A stretch of 64,000 nucleotides of DNA, from the NCBI GenBank assembly GCA_965644265.1, contig OZ286476.1, positions 22,444,001 to 22,508,000 on the forward strand, read 5' to 3'. The DNA comes from Glycera tridactyla (lineage: Eukaryota). Of this stretch, positions 38,750 through 64,000 are shown piece by piece; the first letter of the stretch is position 1; every line of letters begins with the position of its first letter. Under the pieces are notes generated by a model. That model worked only from the letters and a program-made list of their open reading frames with translations, had not been told where the DNA came from and ran no database searches. A program made the translations under genes and the position numbers.

Positions 38750-41700
38750 AACCTTGATGCAAATTCATCAGCCAAGCACAAATTACTAGCAATGTGACCC
38801 TACATTTTTTTCACTTTTTTGACTCATAGGACGATTGCGAACATTATGAGTGATTTCTGTGCAATTCTGAACGTCAGTTTTGTTCCATGTGGGAAAAAAA
38901 TGCAAATTTACATGGTATTCCCGGGAAAACATGGTATTTAGGGGGTCAACATCTGATATTATTCAATTTTTATGTACTATTTTGAGGCCATCTTTTTCAA
39001 GTTTCCTGCCAAGCATGGTTTATCTGTCATTGTGTTTTGATAGTGAATGAGATACCCAGGATATTCATGTTTTTTAAATCATGTCAAAACCTGAAAATGA
39101 TACTCGCATGCCTCCAGTTGACATGTCCTGGTGGTGTGGTTTCATCCGTGACCCCTTGTTTTCTTGACATTTATCTTGAGCATATATCAGTACCAAGCTG
39201 CCAGTAAAATATTGAAGATTCTGAACGTCAGAAGTGAACTGTAGCGATTGTCTTTGATGACGGCAGGCAATATTACATGAATGAGCGATAGCCCATATTC
39301 CCTGAATTATACAGGAATAGATCACTGAGATATGTCATGTTTCCCTGTAGGCAATCACATTGGTGGGCAATTGATGCGCAAGTACATGGAACCCATATCG
39401 AGATGTATTACAGGCGCACAAAGAATTGAGATCTGACACCATATCTTACAGTATGCAGTAACCCTTGCCCTGAGCAAGACCTGTGTAAGCAAGAACCTAC
39501 CCTAAGCAACGGGATTCCGTTTATCCCGTCAAGATTTCTTTCACTATGATTGAGCATGAACTTGCCCTAGGCACACCTTCAGGTGACTTAATACTTAGGA
39601 CACGCCTGATTGTATGTAGCAGACAGGTGGAGAAGCATGACCAAGGCGTGCACTATTCTGTATGAGCCTTCCATTGAAAAGAGATCTCAGGGAATTGAAT
39701 GAAACATTCAACATGAACAAACTTTCAATTTTTTTATGAATTTTGATGAAATAGATTCCATATTCTCTGTTCTTATGCAAAATCCCACATAAGTGTTGTC
39801 ACCCATGCCTAACCAAGTTCATTACCATCACCGATAGGATGTAGCTCTCATGTAGTGTGCTTGGAATTTGTGCCAAACTATGTTTGATTTAAGAACTTCA
39901 CTAGGCAAAAGACATGAGACCCCAGAGGGTCATACTACATGCTGATGCACGGAAGATAGATCTAGATGATCAAGGCATGAGATACAAATCATACTTTAGC
40001 CAACTTTTGTGATGATTTGATCTTTATGATCGGTTATATGAGTAGCTCCATTGAAAACAGTGGCTAGAGCTCAGCTGGTCTAAATGAATGGAAGGCATGA
40101 TGAAATTTGACTCATGTTTACATTTCTGAGGTAGTAATGATTGATTTCAGATAAACTTTCATGGCCTGGGATGGAAATATGGTGACAGGACAAGTGAAGA
40201 CGTCCATAGTATTCAAGTTCATCAGAAGTCATATATCAGAGATTTCATCCAATTAGCTTAGAAAGAAAATTAATTCATGACAGATTTTTCTTATCGAATG
40301 CCCCATCCATCTGAGTTATGTATGTTGCAGACATTGATTCTGACTGGTAGCCAGGCGAGCAGGNNNNNNNNNNNNNNNNNNNNNNNNNNNNNNNNNNNNN
40401 NNNNNNNNNNNNNNNNNNNNNNNNNNNNNNNNNNNNNNNNNNNNNNNNNNNNNNNNNNNNNNNNNNNNNNNNNNNNNNNNNNNNNNNNNNNNNNNNNNNN
40501 NNNNNNNNNNNNNNNNNNNNNNNNNNNNNNNNNNNNNNNNNNNNNNNNNNNNNNNNNNNNNNNNNNNNNNNNNNNNNNNNNNNNNNNNTGATGCTGATTG
40601 GCATCCTCCCGTAAGAGGTTTTCATTATCAGTACCTGATAAAAGGAGCTTACCTGGATATAATGATATCAGAAGCAAGATGCGAACCTTCAGATGTTGGT
40701 AAAGCATCCAATCCAGCATCGTTCCTACTTTGATCAAATTGTATTCAGGCCGAGCTGGCGTGTGGTAGACTTGAATTGATTCCAACTCGATATGAAATGT
40801 GATTGCCAGGATTTTGACCTCACCTTGAGAAAAGCAAGCACCACCTCTAGTGAGATATATTGTCACTATTCTGCAGATGGCGAGGGCATCGGGTAGCCCT
40901 TCTGAAATCAAAGATCTTTCATTGCATGCACCAGTGACTCGATTATATCAACTCGATCTGATCTTCTCAAAGCATGATGGTGGTGAATGCAGATCGTACA
41001 TTCCTGGATGAAAGTTTGAAGCAGGGAGCTGGAAATGACACTCTCGAGGTCTGTGAATCTTATGAATATTCATATTCTGTTGAGTAACTGGAAGGAGAAG
41101 TCTCGAAAGATCTTATCCATACACACTGCATGGACGCCCAAATATAGACAAAATGGCACTACCATTACGTAAAACAGCCAACCAACAAACACCTGGTGAG
41201 TGTTGCGGTTGTGTTTGTGGGGTGGCAATCTATTCATTTTGCTACTCTTGATGAGCACGTAGGCTTTGCTGTTCCATTAGATTTTCATCATTCTAGTGGA
41301 AGAAATGACAATCCAAGGAATCATCAGTTGAATTTGTATCAGGGTTGAATGCTGGTTAGGGTTTTGTCAATGAACAATGCTCAATGCTTGCTCAGAAAAA
41401 AACAATCACTATACACCCTCAAAAAAGGTCTTGGCATATGTCTCAATTTCTGATGATGAAAACAATACCTGATAATGCTGTAATCATAAAGGATGCCCCG
41501 AGTGCCAGGGACAGAGTCACAGTACAGGCTAGACAAAGTAGCTGGTCCTAGCACTGCACCTATGTCCATGACACGACTGGCATTCTACATTTACCATCCA
41601 ATATTTCTATCTCAAAAATTGAATTCAATATTTGAAATCCTCCTGAGTTTAGAATTCTGGCTGAGAATGATGGCAGCATCTTGTCAGGCTACCATTTGAC

Positions 41701-42239: not shown

Positions 42240-45200
42240 CGCAGAGGATTACACTACTTGTGATGTCATCAATCTACAGCTGACTTGTAACATGTACCTC
42301 GTGAACAGCTTGATGTATGCTGCATCAAATTCAATGAAGGCAGAATGAGTGATAACCCATATTGCCCGAATCATACAAGAATAGATCGCTGAGATATGTC
42401 CTCTTAGGTAATCACATCAACAGTAATGATTGATGGGAAAACTACATGAAACCCATATTGAAATGTATTACAGGGGCACGCAATCGAGATTTGATGCCAT
42501 ATCTGATGGTATGCAGCACATCTTGCCCTAAGCAAGACCTGCACTAAGCAAGAACCTGCCCTGAGCAACAGGCTTTTGTTCATATAGTCAGAATATTTTT
42601 CACTATCATTTACCTGTTCCAAGCGTGAACTTGCCCTAGGCTCACATGTTTTCTCACATCCCACGAGCAACATGCTTAGGACAAGTTTGACTGCATAAAC
42701 CAGGTGTGCACTAGACTCCTACCCTACCCACCCTACATATTCTATCGTTACAATTCGCGAGGATACTCCAGTCCCTCCATCGAAAGAGATTTTCCAGATA
42801 TTGAATGCTACATTCGACAAGCACAATTTCAGAAATTTTGTAGAAATTTCGATGAAATAAATTCTGGATCTTCAGCTATTATGCAAAATTTCACTGGAGT
42901 GTTGTCATCTATGCCAATCCAAGTTCATTACCAATACAAAGAAGATGTACGTCTCATGTAGTGTGCATGGTGTGTCATTCTGTGTTTAATTTATGGACTT
43001 CATCAGGCAAAAGACATCAGACCCTGGAGGGTCATATCACCTACCAATGCCACGGAGATAGATTTACAAGATCGAGGCATGAGATACCAATCATACTTCA
43101 GCGAACGTTCATGATGATTCAATCTTTATGATCGGTTACATGACTATGTCCATGCTTAATAAATAAAGTTTAATCCAGTCAAACCAGAAACAGTGGCTTG
43201 AGTTCAGCTGATTATGATGACTGAAGGGCGAAATGAAATTTGATTCGTGCTCATATTTTGGGTAGAAGTAGTGAATTTCAAATAAAATCTCAAAAGTCTG
43301 GGATCGAGTATTCTGATATAAACGTGCCAGGCGCAATGCACCTGGTCAACAAGACTGTAGGAGATTCACTGTCATAAAATTCTATGGTGACTGCGGTGAT
43401 CTGAGTAGCCCATCACAATCAAATGAAAATATGATGACATGACAAATGGAGATGTCAAACAGTATTTGAGTCCAATACAAGTCATGGATCAGAGATTTCA
43501 TCCTAAGTTAAGAAAGAACATTTATGAGAGGTTCATTTCATCGAATGCCCACATTTCCTGAGTGATGTATGTAGCAGACACTGATTTTGACTGATAGCCA
43601 GACGAGCATGGTAGATCAAAAGTTGCCATTATGATGATGATGATAATGATGATGATGATGATGATGATGCCAATGCTGCTGCTTCTGCTACTAATGATAA
43701 GAATATGGTGATGATGACGATGATGATAATGTCAGCGATGTCCCTCCTATTGGCCAGCCAGCAATATATTTTCAGTTATGTCGCTATGAACCTTTAATTG
43801 CACTTTTAATTTACTTCGAATATGTTCTCTCTGAATGCCCACGAATATGGCACTCACTTCACAGATGATAATTCTAAGGTTGACAAATCTAACTATCAAT
43901 AATATCACAACATTAGTATAATTTGCGTCACCTGTTTGTATTTTTGTATCAATGTATGCGTCATAATTCTTATTTTCATGAATCAGTGTAAGTGGTATGG
44001 TGCACCGAAATCATCAGGAATATACATATACTATAAATAGGACATATGAGAGGGTCTATTCATATTCATCCATTCTCATCTCAAACATCTCCATTTCGTC
44101 CATACCCAATTGGTAAATATCATCCAAATTCATTATGTCGTATTCGAATGTTTGCTAATCCTGTCGTCATCCTGAAGATGCATGCCTTGCGCACCCAAAT
44201 GTAGGCTACATGACGGAGTTAGATAAACTGTTAAAAACAAAAACATGATGATGATGATGATGATAATGATGATGATGGTGGTGGTGGTGGTGATGATGAT
44301 GATAATGATGATGCTGTATTAACATCCCGTAAGAGGATTCCATCATCGGTACATGATAGAAGGAGCTTACCTATATAAAATGATATCAGAGGCGAGAAGT
44401 GAATCTTCAGATGTTGGCAAAGCATCCAATCCAGCATCCTTCCTTCTTGATTCGAGTTGTATTCAGGCCGAGCTGGAGTATGGTAGACTTAAATTAATTC
44501 CAACTTGATTGGAAATGTGATTGCACAGGATTTGCCCTCGCCTTAAGAAAAGAGAACACCACCTCTAGTGAGATATATTGTCACTATTCAGCAGATGGCG
44601 AGAGCATTGGGTAGCCCTTCTGAAATCCAAGATCCTTCATTGCATGCACCAGTGGCTTGATTATATCAACTCAATCTAGTCTTCTCAAAGGTTGGTGGTG
44701 GTGAATGCAGAACCTACATTGCTGGATGAAAGTTTGAAGGAGGGGGTTGGTGTCTGAGAAATGACACTCTTGAGGTCTGTGAATCTCATGGCTATTCATC
44801 TTCTAGTGAGGAGCTGTAAGGAGAAGACTTGAGAGATCTCATCCATACACACCGCATAGACACCCAAATATAGACGGAATGGCACTACCATTACGTGAAA
44901 CAGCCAACCAACAAACACCTGGTGAGTGTTGTGGTTGTGTTTGTGAAGTGGTGATCTATTATGATTACCATCATTTTGCTACTCTTGATGAGAACCTAGG
45001 CCTCACCGTTTTATTGTATTTTCATTATTCTAGTGGAAGTGATGGCAATCCAGGGAATCATCTAATGACCTTGTATCAGGGTTAAATACTGGTCAGGGTT
45101 TCGTCAATGAACAATGCTCCATGCTTGCTCAGAAAAAATCAATTACCCACACCCTCACAATAGGTCTCGGCATATGTCTCAATTTCCGATAATAGAAACA

Positions 45201-56145: not shown

Positions 56146-56402
56146 GTTTATTTATCAAACCTGGGGATCTATGCTTACCACTTCTACCTCAAATACTGCA
56201 TTCCCCAGGCCGAATGCCTACGTGCGAACATTATAACAATATAAAATTTATTTAGAGGATGGAACCTCCCTCTGATCTCCCTTCCACCAGGTGGCTTATG
56301 ATATACTGGCCACCAGAGGTCGGCCCATCTGCTTTGTTTATCTGTGTGTTTTTCCAACGAGCGTTGAGCTCTACAGCAGGGAAGGATGGGAGGGACCATC
56401 CA

Positions 56403-59960: not shown

Positions 59961-60284
59961 TGTGCACACATGAAATAGACGCCCACCCACACACGATAGG
60001 GATTAGCAGGAATAATATGACAATCACTCTATAAATCACTCATGAAAAGGGTATATGACACCATCTGAAAAGGCAAGGTTATGAAAGTCACAGACCCGAA
60101 GGCCATATCAGCTCACCTGTGGCAAAATTGATTATAATAACTTCACCACCCACAACGATGATATGAAATTCACAGACTCAATGCCAAGGCAAGAGTCATT
60201 TCAACACAATACAAAAGCAACAATATTGAATTGAATTTAATATCAAGCTGAATGAGGTTTCTGATCATCGGACAACTGACACCC

Positions 60285-60780
60285 GACACGGCCATGAACG
60301 AAACACTACCTCAGATGCATCACCGGACACGGCCACGCGAGAATGAGAGCTCCCATAGAGCAGTGTAGAGATACCGGACACTATGATCGCACCCAAAACT
60401 GCTTAATACCTGGGAACAACTGATTATGACGACTTAATTCCATGGAACTGTGAACTGTCATCGCGCGAACAAATCGGGGATAAACACACCAATTTACGTC
60501 AGCAACCTATTACCGCCGCTGTCAATTATACCGGACAAAGCCGTGAACAAAACACTACCTCGGATGCGTCACCGGACACGGCTGCGCGAGAATTAGACGC
60601 TCGCAAAGAGCTACCGGACACCGGAAACTATGATCACACACGGATCTGCCTAATACATGGGAACAACTGATTATCACGACTTAATTCCATGGAACTGTAA
60701 ACTGTCATCGCGCGAACAAATCGGCGATTAATAGACCAAATTTTGTCAGCGACCTATTACCGCTGCTGTCAAATTATAGC
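60285..60780. repeat. ~249-bp tandem duplication in the DIRS 5' UTR
   Basis: Copies start near 60292 (CCATGAACGAAACACTACC) and 60541 (CCGTGAACAAAACACTACC). Confidence 0.9.
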
Positions 60781-61756
60781 CGATTTCGTCACAGGACACC
60801 GGACACGATGTCGTACATCAACTATCACTGCAAAGACTGATTGACTATCTCAACGCGCACATTGATGTGAGAACAACCTCCTCGACAGCATTCCAGAACT
60901 GTGAACTGTCATTATAAATCTAATAAGGAACCCCGTCACCGCCATGAGCAGCGGACGCCCCTGCGCATGCCCTCCGGCGATCCTGCACCACGCTAACAAT
61001 TACAGGCGATTAAAGTTCGCAAAACAATCCAGGGATATTTTGTGAATATTCCATGTACAAAGAATATGATATCCTAATGATATACACGCAATGATTCCAC
61101 TGGAAAGTCCGTAGGTATCGCAAATTCTAATTTTTGCGAGAGCCCAGGTGTTCCTCAACTGTCTCTAAGGATGCGAAGTTGAAAAATACACAGATAAACA
61201 AAGCAGACTGGCCGACCTCTGGTGGCCAGTATATCATTAGCCACCTGGTGGAAGGGAGGTCGGATGGAGGTTCCATCCTCTAAATGAATCTTATATTGTT
61301 ATAATGTTCGCACGTAGGCATTCGGCCTGGGGAATGCAGAATTTGAGGGAGAGATGGTACAAATAGATCTACATGTTTTATCACTACAATTCACGAGGGT
61401 GCCCCCATCCCTCAATCGATAAGAGATCTCAGGGTATTGAATGATACATTCAACATGCACGAATTTCCAGATTTGGTAGAGATTTCGATGAAATAAATCC
61501 CATATCTTCTGTTATTATGCAAAATCCCACCCGAGTGTTGTAATCCATGCCAAATCAGGTTCATTATCAACACACATAGAATGTGAGTCTCCTGTTGTGT
61601 AGTAGTTAGAGGGGCTGTATAACAGCTATCCACCAGGAACGGGGCACTATGACAGCAGCTGAATATATCACAGTTCTTTCCATACGATAATAGAACAAGT
61701 AAAATCCCACGGGATATATGTATTCCATATGGATTCAAGCTAAGCAATCCTGTCCT

Positions 61757-61830
61757 GGTCAGTTAGCTCAATTGGTTAGAGCGTCATCCTAATGAGTTGA
61801 AGGTTACAGGTTCGATTCCTGTACTGACCA
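61757..61830 (+). tRNA. trnI: tRNA-Ile (anticodon AAT)
   Basis: 74-nt cloverleaf: acceptor GGTCAGT/ACTGACC 7/7, D-stem GCTC/GAGC, anticodon stem 4/5 (one T-T), loop CT-AAT-GA, T-stem ACAGG/CCTGT, TTCGATT loop, discriminator A. Confidence 0.85.
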
Positions 61831-62187
61831 TTTATCCTAGTCAATTCTTTGGATTGTATACTAGCAATGATAAACTATTCACTATAATAGTACTTATCAA
61901 GGAACTAGCACTGAAGCGATATAATGGATGGGGAGAGTGGATGTTATAGTAGAAAAGAATAGCAATGACATCCTATCGTATATTATATTACTCTAGGTTA
62001 GATGCGTAGCAATGGATGTATAATGTAGGTTTGGCATTAAATAGCAACAGAACATATAATATACCACAGGGTATGACTATAAAAGAAGGAATTTGTTTTG
62101 GTTTTAGATCATTATCCTCTGGATTCATTGGATGAGATACTGTCAAGATTGACATCAGGTATATTTCGTTATACTTTGGTATTTGTA

Positions 62188-62790: not shown

Positions 62791-63269
62791 TGATCATAAT
62801 ATCCATTTTATTTCAGTTTCAAGGCTTCATACTACGTACTCCATCATACAGCAAGGTAGCAGTGTGTGTATATATGTGTCCATGTTGATCAGCAGTAGTA
62901 CATCTCCTTAAACGGTAAGTGCATAAGTGACGTTGAACTGTGATATTCATTCAATCCACACCCTGTTGCCAGCCACTCACCCCACTCTCTACACATATCA
63001 TCATCAACCAAGAATTACAAATGAATAAACACAGTTTTAAAGTCGTACATCCCAGATATGGTTTAGATTATATTAGTTCCAGTTTATTCACGTACGGTGT
63101 CAACTTTTTGGATGTATGCAGGTATATATCTGCTAGTATCACAAATTCCGCTATTCAGTAATGGGTTCTATTCAAAGTCCAGTATGTGAAGAAATAGTTT
63201 GTTGGTCAAGTTCATTTATTATGTTATTCTCATGCATATACTAATCTTAACTTGTCATTGTAGGTAATC

Positions 63270-64000
63270 ATGGAGGATAATGATTCCAGCGATGGACAAC
63301 AGTCAACTACTACTGACACTGTCATGCCATCGACTTCAAATGATAAGCAAGAGTCTCACCATACATCAAGAGTATGTGGAAGACGTGCAACAAAAAGGGC
63401 AAGGTCGAGAGGCAGATCTAGTGAATGGGCATCCAAAGTCCGCAGAAGGAATGTCAGACCTCATCCAGACTCACTGACATCTCGACAGCGTTTAGATGAT
63501 GTAAGCATAGACAATAGTCAATATTCATTAGTCCGCCATAACGTCAGACCATTTATAAACGGATTAGGTGTCAGTATATCATTTGATTTGATTTTCTCAA
63601 GCAAACTCATTCAGTCGAATCCTAGACTGATGGACGTGAAGGACATTCTAGAGTCGGTGTTTGATGAGATTCTGACTACATTATCACAAAATACACAGTC
63701 AGATGCTCTTGTGAGAATTGTTCTGTTTCAACAGGAATTAGACTCACCGATGGTTGTGCCACTGAGGAAATTGAAGATGATGAATAGTTCACATATTCTG
63801 AACACCATAAGCAATTTATCACAGTCTAAGAAAAATGTCAGGCTAGATGAATCTCTACAAATAAAGGTTGAGATCATTCACAGTATGGAGGGTGGTGCAA
63901 GATATTCGATATCTTGCGAAAATGATAGAGACAGTAAGAGGTCTATCGTAGTCGTTAAGAATGACGATCATCTATGTTTGATACGAGCCATTTTCATTTC
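63270..64000 (+). CDS. polB: Protein-primed DNA polymerase B of Polinton, N-terminal part (open to the window end; missing from the ORF track)
   Basis: Stop-free frame from ATG 63270. VRIVLFQQELDSPMVVP...ILNTISNLSQS..LDESLQIKV..EGG...KRSIVVVKNDDHLCLIRAI resembles the N-terminal region of Polinton pPolB ORFs. Confidence 0.8.
   Translation, partial: MEDNDSSDGQQSTTTDTVMPSTSNDKQESHHTSRVCGRRATKRARSRGRSSEWASKVRRRNVRPHPDSLTSRQRLDDVSIDNSQYSLVRHNVRPFINGLGVSISFDLIFSSKLIQSNPRLMDVKDILESVFDEILTTLSQNTQSDALVRIVLFQQELDSPMVVPLRKLKMMNSSHILNTISNLSQSKKNVRLDESLQIKVEIIHSMEGGARYSISCENDRDSKRSIVVVKNDDHLCLIRAIFI

Follow-up and report, generated by a model that had tools for sequence, protein, structure and literature searches.

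A tRNA-Ile(AAT) gene borne by a Polinton of Glycera tridactyla and recurring in four Polinton lineages

The stretch of Glycera tridactyla DNA analysed here (the window; 64 kb, G000:C47:22444001-22508000) contains, close to its right-hand edge, the left part of a Polinton/Maverick element of 21,827 bp (C47:22505601-22527427), and the features that fall within the window are collected in Table 1. Similarity to a host repeat ends at 61600 and is picked up again past the right end of the element, so that 61601 is identified as the insertion point; a first-pass annotation had placed the end of this similarity at AGTAGT, and both the position and the paralogous repeats were confirmed. The same annotation predicted a right end reading ACTACT followed by TTGTGT. 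The element ends at G000:C47:22527427 with ACTACT and then TGTGT; the predicted terminus was therefore found, but TTGTGT holds only if a 6-bp duplication shares one T with the end of the element, the duplication otherwise being the 5-bp TGTGT. A clean 6-bp duplication flanks the sister copy on C10 (20,559 bp, with one ARAGORN tRNA), and 6 bp are also duplicated in three other family members. Terminal inverted repeats (TIRs) starting with (AG)3 or (AGT)2 are stated for Polintons/Mavericks in a passage of PMC8097293. The host flank itself holds a 249-bp tandem duplication (60281-60778, 84%) and an inverted 200-bp repeat (61181-61381 against 56154-56354, 90%).

Table 1. Features of the element terminus and its insertion site (window positions)
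Feature	Positions	Strand	Basis or remark
Host repeat broken by the insertion	61369..61600	+	78-79% identity to window 42733-42964 and 39667-39858
Target-site duplication	61595..61600	+	5 bp (61596-61600); 6 bp if one T is counted also as part of the right end
Left TIR, 69 bp, starting (AGT)2	61601..61669	+	68/69 bases match the right end, G000:C47:22527359-22527427
Element-borne tRNA-Ile(AAT), single copy, outside the TIR	61757..61830	+	ARAGORN, Rfam, identity with C10 sister, cross-family conservation
A-box region (D arm), presumed Pol III promoter	61764..61776	+	Cloverleaf position; promoter role presumed
Anticodon AAT followed by G37	61791..61794	+	Sequence
B-box region (T arm), presumed Pol III promoter	61809..61819	+	Cloverleaf position; promoter role presumed
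T3 run; T4-or-longer terminator here in most sister families	61831..61833	+	
Stop-to-stop frame, 235 codons	62083..62790	+	No Pfam match; parts conserved in sister families
Start of the protein-primed DNA polymerase B region	63264..64000	+	Extends past the window in three separate frames

The gene content of the element bears out its earlier identification as a Polinton, with a polymerase, an integrase, a double jelly-roll capsid, TIRs, and a target-site duplication. PF03175 was matched in the two downstream frames (E 2.5e-24 and 7.4e-27), the polymerase gene being interrupted in the window copy, and a retrovirus-like integrase is present (rve, PF00665, E 1.5e-10). The capsid is a 454-aa frame with a predicted double jelly-roll fold (model pLDDT 68); Foldseek matched the model to the capsids of iridovirus, PBCV-1, Sputnik, and mavirus (best E 1.9e-15), and a profile of the protein gave no match among PDB sequences. 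The candidate packaging ATPase has only a weak AAA_22 match (E 0.0044) and is 39% identical to a homolog from a Beta family that itself has a sub-threshold Pox_A32 match. No adenovirus-like maturation protease was matched in the window element by tblastn with six proteases of other families (E <= 1); none was detected in it or its close subfamilies, and the protease is present in most other sampled families. The element is a member of the Alpha class as defined in PMC8502044. It shares with the Alpha-PolB Polintons/Mavericks (adintoviruses) the (AGT)2 ends, TIRs, target-site duplication, PF03175, rve, an ATPase-like gene, the double jelly-roll capsid, and a length of about 22 kb, but it differs from them by an added tRNA gene and by the lack of a detected protease in its clade.

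Several further observations concern the interior of the element. Direct and inverted internal repeats lie at G000:C47:22512000-22516500 (~6.4-10.9 kb into the element) and are arranged differently in the sister copies. When the window element was compared with the elements at C4:16.31 Mb and C51:42.63 Mb, four-fold sites differed by 7-13% in the capsid-integrase part and by 42-61% in the polymerase, and this suggests that modules may have been exchanged between subfamilies. Homologs of the TATA-binding protein (TBP; G000:C47:22520549-22521259, minus strand, PF00352, E 1e-28) and of PC4 (G000:C47:22524291-22524758, minus strand, PF02229, E 8e-8) are also encoded, and the legend to Fig. 5 of PMC8502044 already names TBP-like genes in related elements. 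TBP occurs in 10 of the 23 sampled elements, all of the Alpha class. A TBP-tRNA module was considered and rejected, as TBP is found in six tRNA-bearing and four tRNA-less elements and is missing from all three tRNA-bearing Beta elements.

The tRNA gene is the sole ARAGORN call in the window (tRNA-Ile(AAT), 61756-61831), and Rfam model RF00005 matches it with 69.5 bits (E 6e-14; gathering score 29). It begins at +157 of the element, i.e., 156 bp inside the left end, has the anticodon AAT and discriminator A73, and is identical in the C10 sister copy. The acceptor stem (7/7), D-stem (4/4), and T-stem (5/5) are fully paired; the anticodon stem has four of five pairs, with a U30.U40 mismatch. The first-pass annotation had described the cloverleaf at this distance from the terminus, the complete acceptor and T-stems, A15/U48, and G37, all of which were found as described, but it did not mention the U30.U40 mismatch; its view that A15 is compensated by U48 is correct for the window copy but not generally, because only four of the nine A15 rows in the tRNA alignment have the pair and the other five have A15 with C48. 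Minimum-energy folding of the window tRNA does not return the full cloverleaf, a frequent outcome for unmodified tRNAs. In type 2 Pol III genes the promoter is internal and made up of A and B boxes. As was also noted earlier, there is no T4 for ~265 nt, the nearest lying 265 nt downstream at 62096. Only a T3 follows the gene in the window and C10 copies, 10 of 12 element types have a T4 at 0-12 nt from the gene's end, and the missing T4 is a peculiarity of the two-copy subfamily to which the window element belongs; these terminators argue against the read-through or VA-RNA-like unit that had been proposed. A stable hairpin 3' of the tRNA was not found above the level of shuffled sequences (z -0.61 and -0.39). 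The gene is single-copy because it lies outside the TIR, which is only 69 bp long. With one ARAGORN tRNA per element and no second, inverted copy at the right end, the earlier idea of a tRNA within the TIR and duplicated at both ends was abandoned.

When the genome was searched with a pattern modelled on the D arm of the element-type tRNA, there were 114 matches (control, 0), of which 100 were listed, and all 100 listed copies lie in Polinton DNA: 67 have a listed Polinton capsid gene nearby, 15 were linked to a Polinton on inspection (one of them via a 67-bp TIR-like match only), and for the last 18 the link is flank homology to a Polinton terminus. A variant with a shorter D-loop gave at least nine matches, and the three that were looked at all adjoin Beta-class capsid genes. 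The flanks of the listed copies are family-specific, and a tRNA-derived SINE was rejected on this ground and on the location of the listed copies. Altogether, the co-occurrence of tRNA and Polinton asked for in the first-pass annotation holds throughout the listed matches, and the tRNA is part of the element, as opposed to a SINE or an insertion made afterwards. On C29 the host's own tRNA-Ile(AAT) genes are arrayed in tandem (64 of the 100 matches listed in the search that also gave the shorter-D-loop variant). The array starts at ~81.25 Mb with a period of 2,469 bp, each unit also containing four tRNA-Ser genes and one tRNA-Asn gene, and we infer ~300 units from 347 forward matches. Against the host array copy, the sequence of which was taken from one 6-kb stretch of the array, the window tRNA differs at 16 of 74 bases. 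Two unusual copies were also seen. An internally deleted element of 1.8 kb (G000:C17:79979969-79981787) has kept both TIRs, the 6-bp duplication, and the tRNA, and a decayed tRNA reading AAA is accompanied by more degenerate tandem copies at G000:C13:34810674, ~4.8 kb from a Beta-class capsid gene.

The conservation of the tRNA was compared with that of the DNA around it. Four-fold sites of the polymerase differ between the window element and three subfamilies at 183/436, 231/378, and 228/388 positions (42%, 61%, and 59%), whereas in the same order 73, 73, and 72 of the 74 tRNA positions match; the 74-nt flanks match at 42-47 positions, and shuffles at 40-44. Likewise, the tRNAs of two Beta-class families differ at 2/74 positions, against 56-68% of their four-fold sites. 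In an alignment of 11 tRNA variants, 10 from elements and one from the host, 95.7% of cells are paired, as against 27-51% in slid controls. Two-sided changes were found in 10 of 21 pairs, four of them in the acceptor stem, a level reached by none of 500 shuffles in a control that takes no account of relatedness. Under a search pattern that left the anticodon free, 98 of the 100 listed copies have AAT (one TAT, one AAA), A73 is invariant across the alignment, and positions outside the A and B boxes are as conserved as the boxes. Given the conservation relative to four-fold sites and flanks, the co-varying stems, the kept AAT, and the kept T4, selection probably acts on a tRNA-shaped transcript; the pattern indicates selection for a tRNA-shaped RNA with isoleucine identity, rather than for promoter boxes alone.

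The anticodon arm departs from that of cellular copies. The U30.G40 pair, present in the host array copy, in 119 of the 128 listed metagenome matches, and in 14 of 24 IMG/VR matches, is kept in none of 13 element variants. A37 occurs in the host array copy and in all 128 listed metagenome matches; G37 occurs in 6 of the 13 element variants, which form the clade of the window element. G37 was also seen in one of the 24 IMG/VR tRNA-Ile(AAT) genes (L138:9984-10057). According to passages of PMC9976931, U30.G40 is typical of mammalian and insect tRNA-Ile and a predicted eukaryal determinant, and human cytosolic IleRS, unlike other eukaryal-type enzymes, uses t6A37 as a determinant. The element variants, above all the G37 clade, might thus be poorly charged. 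The loss of U30.G40 cuts both ways, as the variants could either evade a host factor that reads the anticodon arm or be charged poorly.

The distribution of the gene among Polintons is patchy. A first look at the whole genome gave ~600 candidate Polinton capsid genes from many families, and 93 capsid loci were scored with the window capsid protein, contigs 47, 51, and 56 being partly covered. Among the loci listed, a tRNA lies within 40 kb of the capsid at 12/12 loci with at least 79% identity to the query, 0/36 with 41-46%, and 32/45 with 38-39%, where chance proximity in this 40-kb count is ~0.004 per locus. A Beta capsid query, scored for a tRNA within 15 kb, gave 17/17, 10/11, 0/12, 2/43, and 0/17 in groups of falling identity, and a tRNA profile search of the sampled regions had matches only in elements already scored as tRNA-bearing. 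In a tree of 23 capsids, 9 elements have the tRNA and 14 lack it, and the well-supported branches force at least four changes; this tree was built by a quick method and has long-branch warnings, and a careful 15-row tree agrees with it on the overlapping rows. Two Alpha and two Beta lineages bear the tRNA, each with tRNA-less relatives. This pattern means that the gene was gained several times, passed between elements, or was present ancestrally and then lost often. Between the window tRNA and that of one Beta family there are 7 differences, as against 11 to that of the window element's own 79% relative and 16 to the host, which hints that the gene may have moved between Alpha and Beta elements, 74 bases being too few to settle this. 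The position of the gene also differs between the classes: in the Alpha lineages it is found upstream of the polymerase, ~130-260 bp in from the terminus, and in the Beta lineages near the opposite end, past the genes for capsid and protease and at a distance of ~0.6-1.4 kb or more from that end. Other tRNA types appeared in sampled elements only as relaxed-threshold ARAGORN calls, and at the default threshold there were none in seven tRNA-less Beta regions. Separately, a 1,879-aa Beta-class polymerase (L062:6973-9999, minus strand) has a NADAR-like match near its C-terminus, just below the Pfam cut-off.

Searches were extended to viral and metagenome contigs, collections that are poor in animal elements. 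The element-type tRNA pattern had no match in either, and the window capsid query found no relative in the viral contigs. A looser tRNA pattern reached 24 viral loci, none with Polinton genes, and a degenerate pattern reached at least 122 metagenome loci (12 listed loci of at least 10 kb), with Polinton genes at none of those listed. Because these collections hold few animal elements, the empty searches do not imply that the gene is confined to Glycera tridactyla.

The function that we favour, and which we regard as evenly poised between right and wrong, is that the element tRNA-Ile serves as a Pol III-transcribed back-up tRNA against loss of the host tRNA-Ile. Host RNA polymerase III would transcribe the gene from its internal A and B boxes, host enzymes would trim the transcript and add CCA, A34 would be converted to inosine so that AUU, AUC, and AUA are read, and the product would be charged with isoleucine, these steps being drawn from general tRNA biology. 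Such a tRNA could keep synthesis of the element's proteins going when host tRNA-Ile is scarce or cut. Since one integrated gene adds little to ~300 host genes, it would probably matter during extrachromosomal copying of the element. The most speculative part is that the altered anticodon arm may let the tRNA evade a host process by which tRNA-Ile is removed. In its fullest form, which is tentative and rather unlikely, a host defence destroys tRNA-Ile, and distant Polinton lineages within one host, active as viruses, have repeatedly captured or exchanged a tRNA-Ile whose remodelled anticodon arm lets it escape. Several points stand against a back-up role, however. The variants might be poorly charged, as noted above. 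The tRNA is dispensable, because 14 of the 23 sampled elements lack it, large and apparently recent families among them, and the subfamily of the window element has no nearby T4. A search of the host for PF04326, a Schlafen-type nuclease domain, which ignored introns, returned one partial match with an internal stop.

The same conservation would fit a simpler role, in which a normal tRNA boosts isoleucine decoding for the element's own genes, the host makes no attack, and the sequence differences of the tRNA are drift under structural constraint; passages of PMC12220804 and PMC6905037 offer this explanation for the tRNAs of Polinton-like viruses and virophages. However, frequencies of Ile, ATT, and ATA did not differ between 6 tRNA-bearing and 13 tRNA-less lineages (p = 0.52, 0.90, and 0.24), in a comparison of capsid, integrase, and ATPase genes that has low power and lineages that are not independent, and codon compensation was rejected in that isoleucine codon use does not predict the carriers. 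The host already has its large tRNA-Ile(AAT) array, and such a role leaves unexplained why only one tRNA type is carried. Because codon use does not separate bearers from non-bearers and the host array has ~300 copies, simple supply is a weak account and appears unlikely.

If the element variants are poorly charged, the product could instead be a decoy or regulatory RNA, i.e., a tRNA-shaped Pol III transcript that binds IleRS, a tRNA sensor, or a nuclease, or that is cut into small RNAs, on the model of adenovirus VA RNA. The changes touch known or predicted identity elements (U30.G40 gone in 13/13 variants, A37 in 6/13), and the Levitt pair is mismatched in five of the nine A15 rows; on the other hand, the anticodon, the discriminator, and the full cloverleaf are all kept, and a carrier of a downstream microRNA is opposed by the lack of a stable hairpin after the tRNA and by the immediate termination in most families. 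We consider this role decidedly unlikely. A purely DNA-level function, in which the A and B boxes recruit TFIIIC and insulate the element end or an early promoter from host chromatin, would suit the placement of the gene near the terminus and upstream of the polymerase in both Alpha lineages. It is very improbable, because it does not account for equally conserved non-box positions, co-varying stems, and a fixed anticodon, the ground on which the boundary-element role of the first-pass annotation also falls short as a sole explanation, nor does it suit the Beta lineages, with the gene well away from the other end. Finally, tRNA genes are known integration hot spots (in a passage of PMC6905037), but that the gene is a passenger replicated together with the element (the head of a SINE, a host tRNA picked up by the element, or an integration-site remnant) is barely credible and largely refuted by the location of all the listed copies in Polinton DNA, the internal position of the gene, its distance from the host array copy, and its conservation far above that of element four-fold sites.

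The back-up tRNA can be set against known systems. Adenovirus VA RNAs and the tRNA-miRNA units of gammaherpesviruses are Pol III-type genes in animal DNA viruses; unlike these, the element tRNA keeps the whole cloverleaf and a fixed anticodon, ends in most families at an immediate terminator, and has no hairpin downstream. The tRNAs of protist Polinton-like viruses (PMC12220804) and virophages (PMC6905037) are likewise carried by small integrating dsDNA viruses, and passages of both papers propose supply and counter-depletion roles for them; Table S12 of PMC12220804 includes 14 tRNA-Ile rows, all from protist hosts. Those tRNAs are program predictions of mixed types, with no selection test in the passages concerned, whereas the Glycera tridactyla elements carry one tRNA type in four lineages and both polymerase classes, under measured purifying selection. 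In phages, tRNAs whose anticodon loops are altered have been proposed (PMC10264068) to resist host nucleases, and PMC11464382 and PMC11555353 also concern phage tRNAs that resist tRNA-targeting defences; human SAMD9 cleaves tRNA-Phe (a passage of PMC10246899). The trait in common with the phage tRNAs is a virus-borne tRNA with an anticodon arm unlike that of the host, but here the host is a eukaryote and the likeness is one of sequence. The word tRNA is absent from the vertebrate Maverick paper (PMC8097293) and the coral polintovirus paper (PMC11131425), occurs once in the adintovirus paper (PMC8502044), in a legend, for MELD viruses with other replicases, and is absent from one supplement of that paper. 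The literature on tRNAs of Polintons, Mavericks, polintoviruses, and adintoviruses within reach contained no animal-Polinton tRNA gene, although subscription papers, Repbase, and bioRxiv supplements lay outside it and could hold one. A virus-borne tRNA is thus of a known kind, and what appears to be new is the recurrence of the same isoleucine type in four animal Polinton lineages.

These findings bear on a possible true viral phase in animal Polintons, for which no particles have been seen so far according to a passage of PMC8097293. A translation-related RNA gene under purifying selection makes best sense if the elements replicate to high copy number and compete for the translation machinery. 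The element tRNA would provide a distinctive small-RNA marker of Polinton activity, and tRNA gene counts of such genomes include more than 100 element-borne copies. That the four lineages share one tRNA type, which in every variant lacks the U30.G40 of cellular copies, names a specific and testable target, namely a host process acting on tRNA-Ile. If the reading of the altered anticodon arm as an escape is true, the element tRNA would parallel in an animal the tRNA-based counter-defence of phages, and an as yet undescribed invertebrate nuclease directed at tRNA-Ile would be expected.
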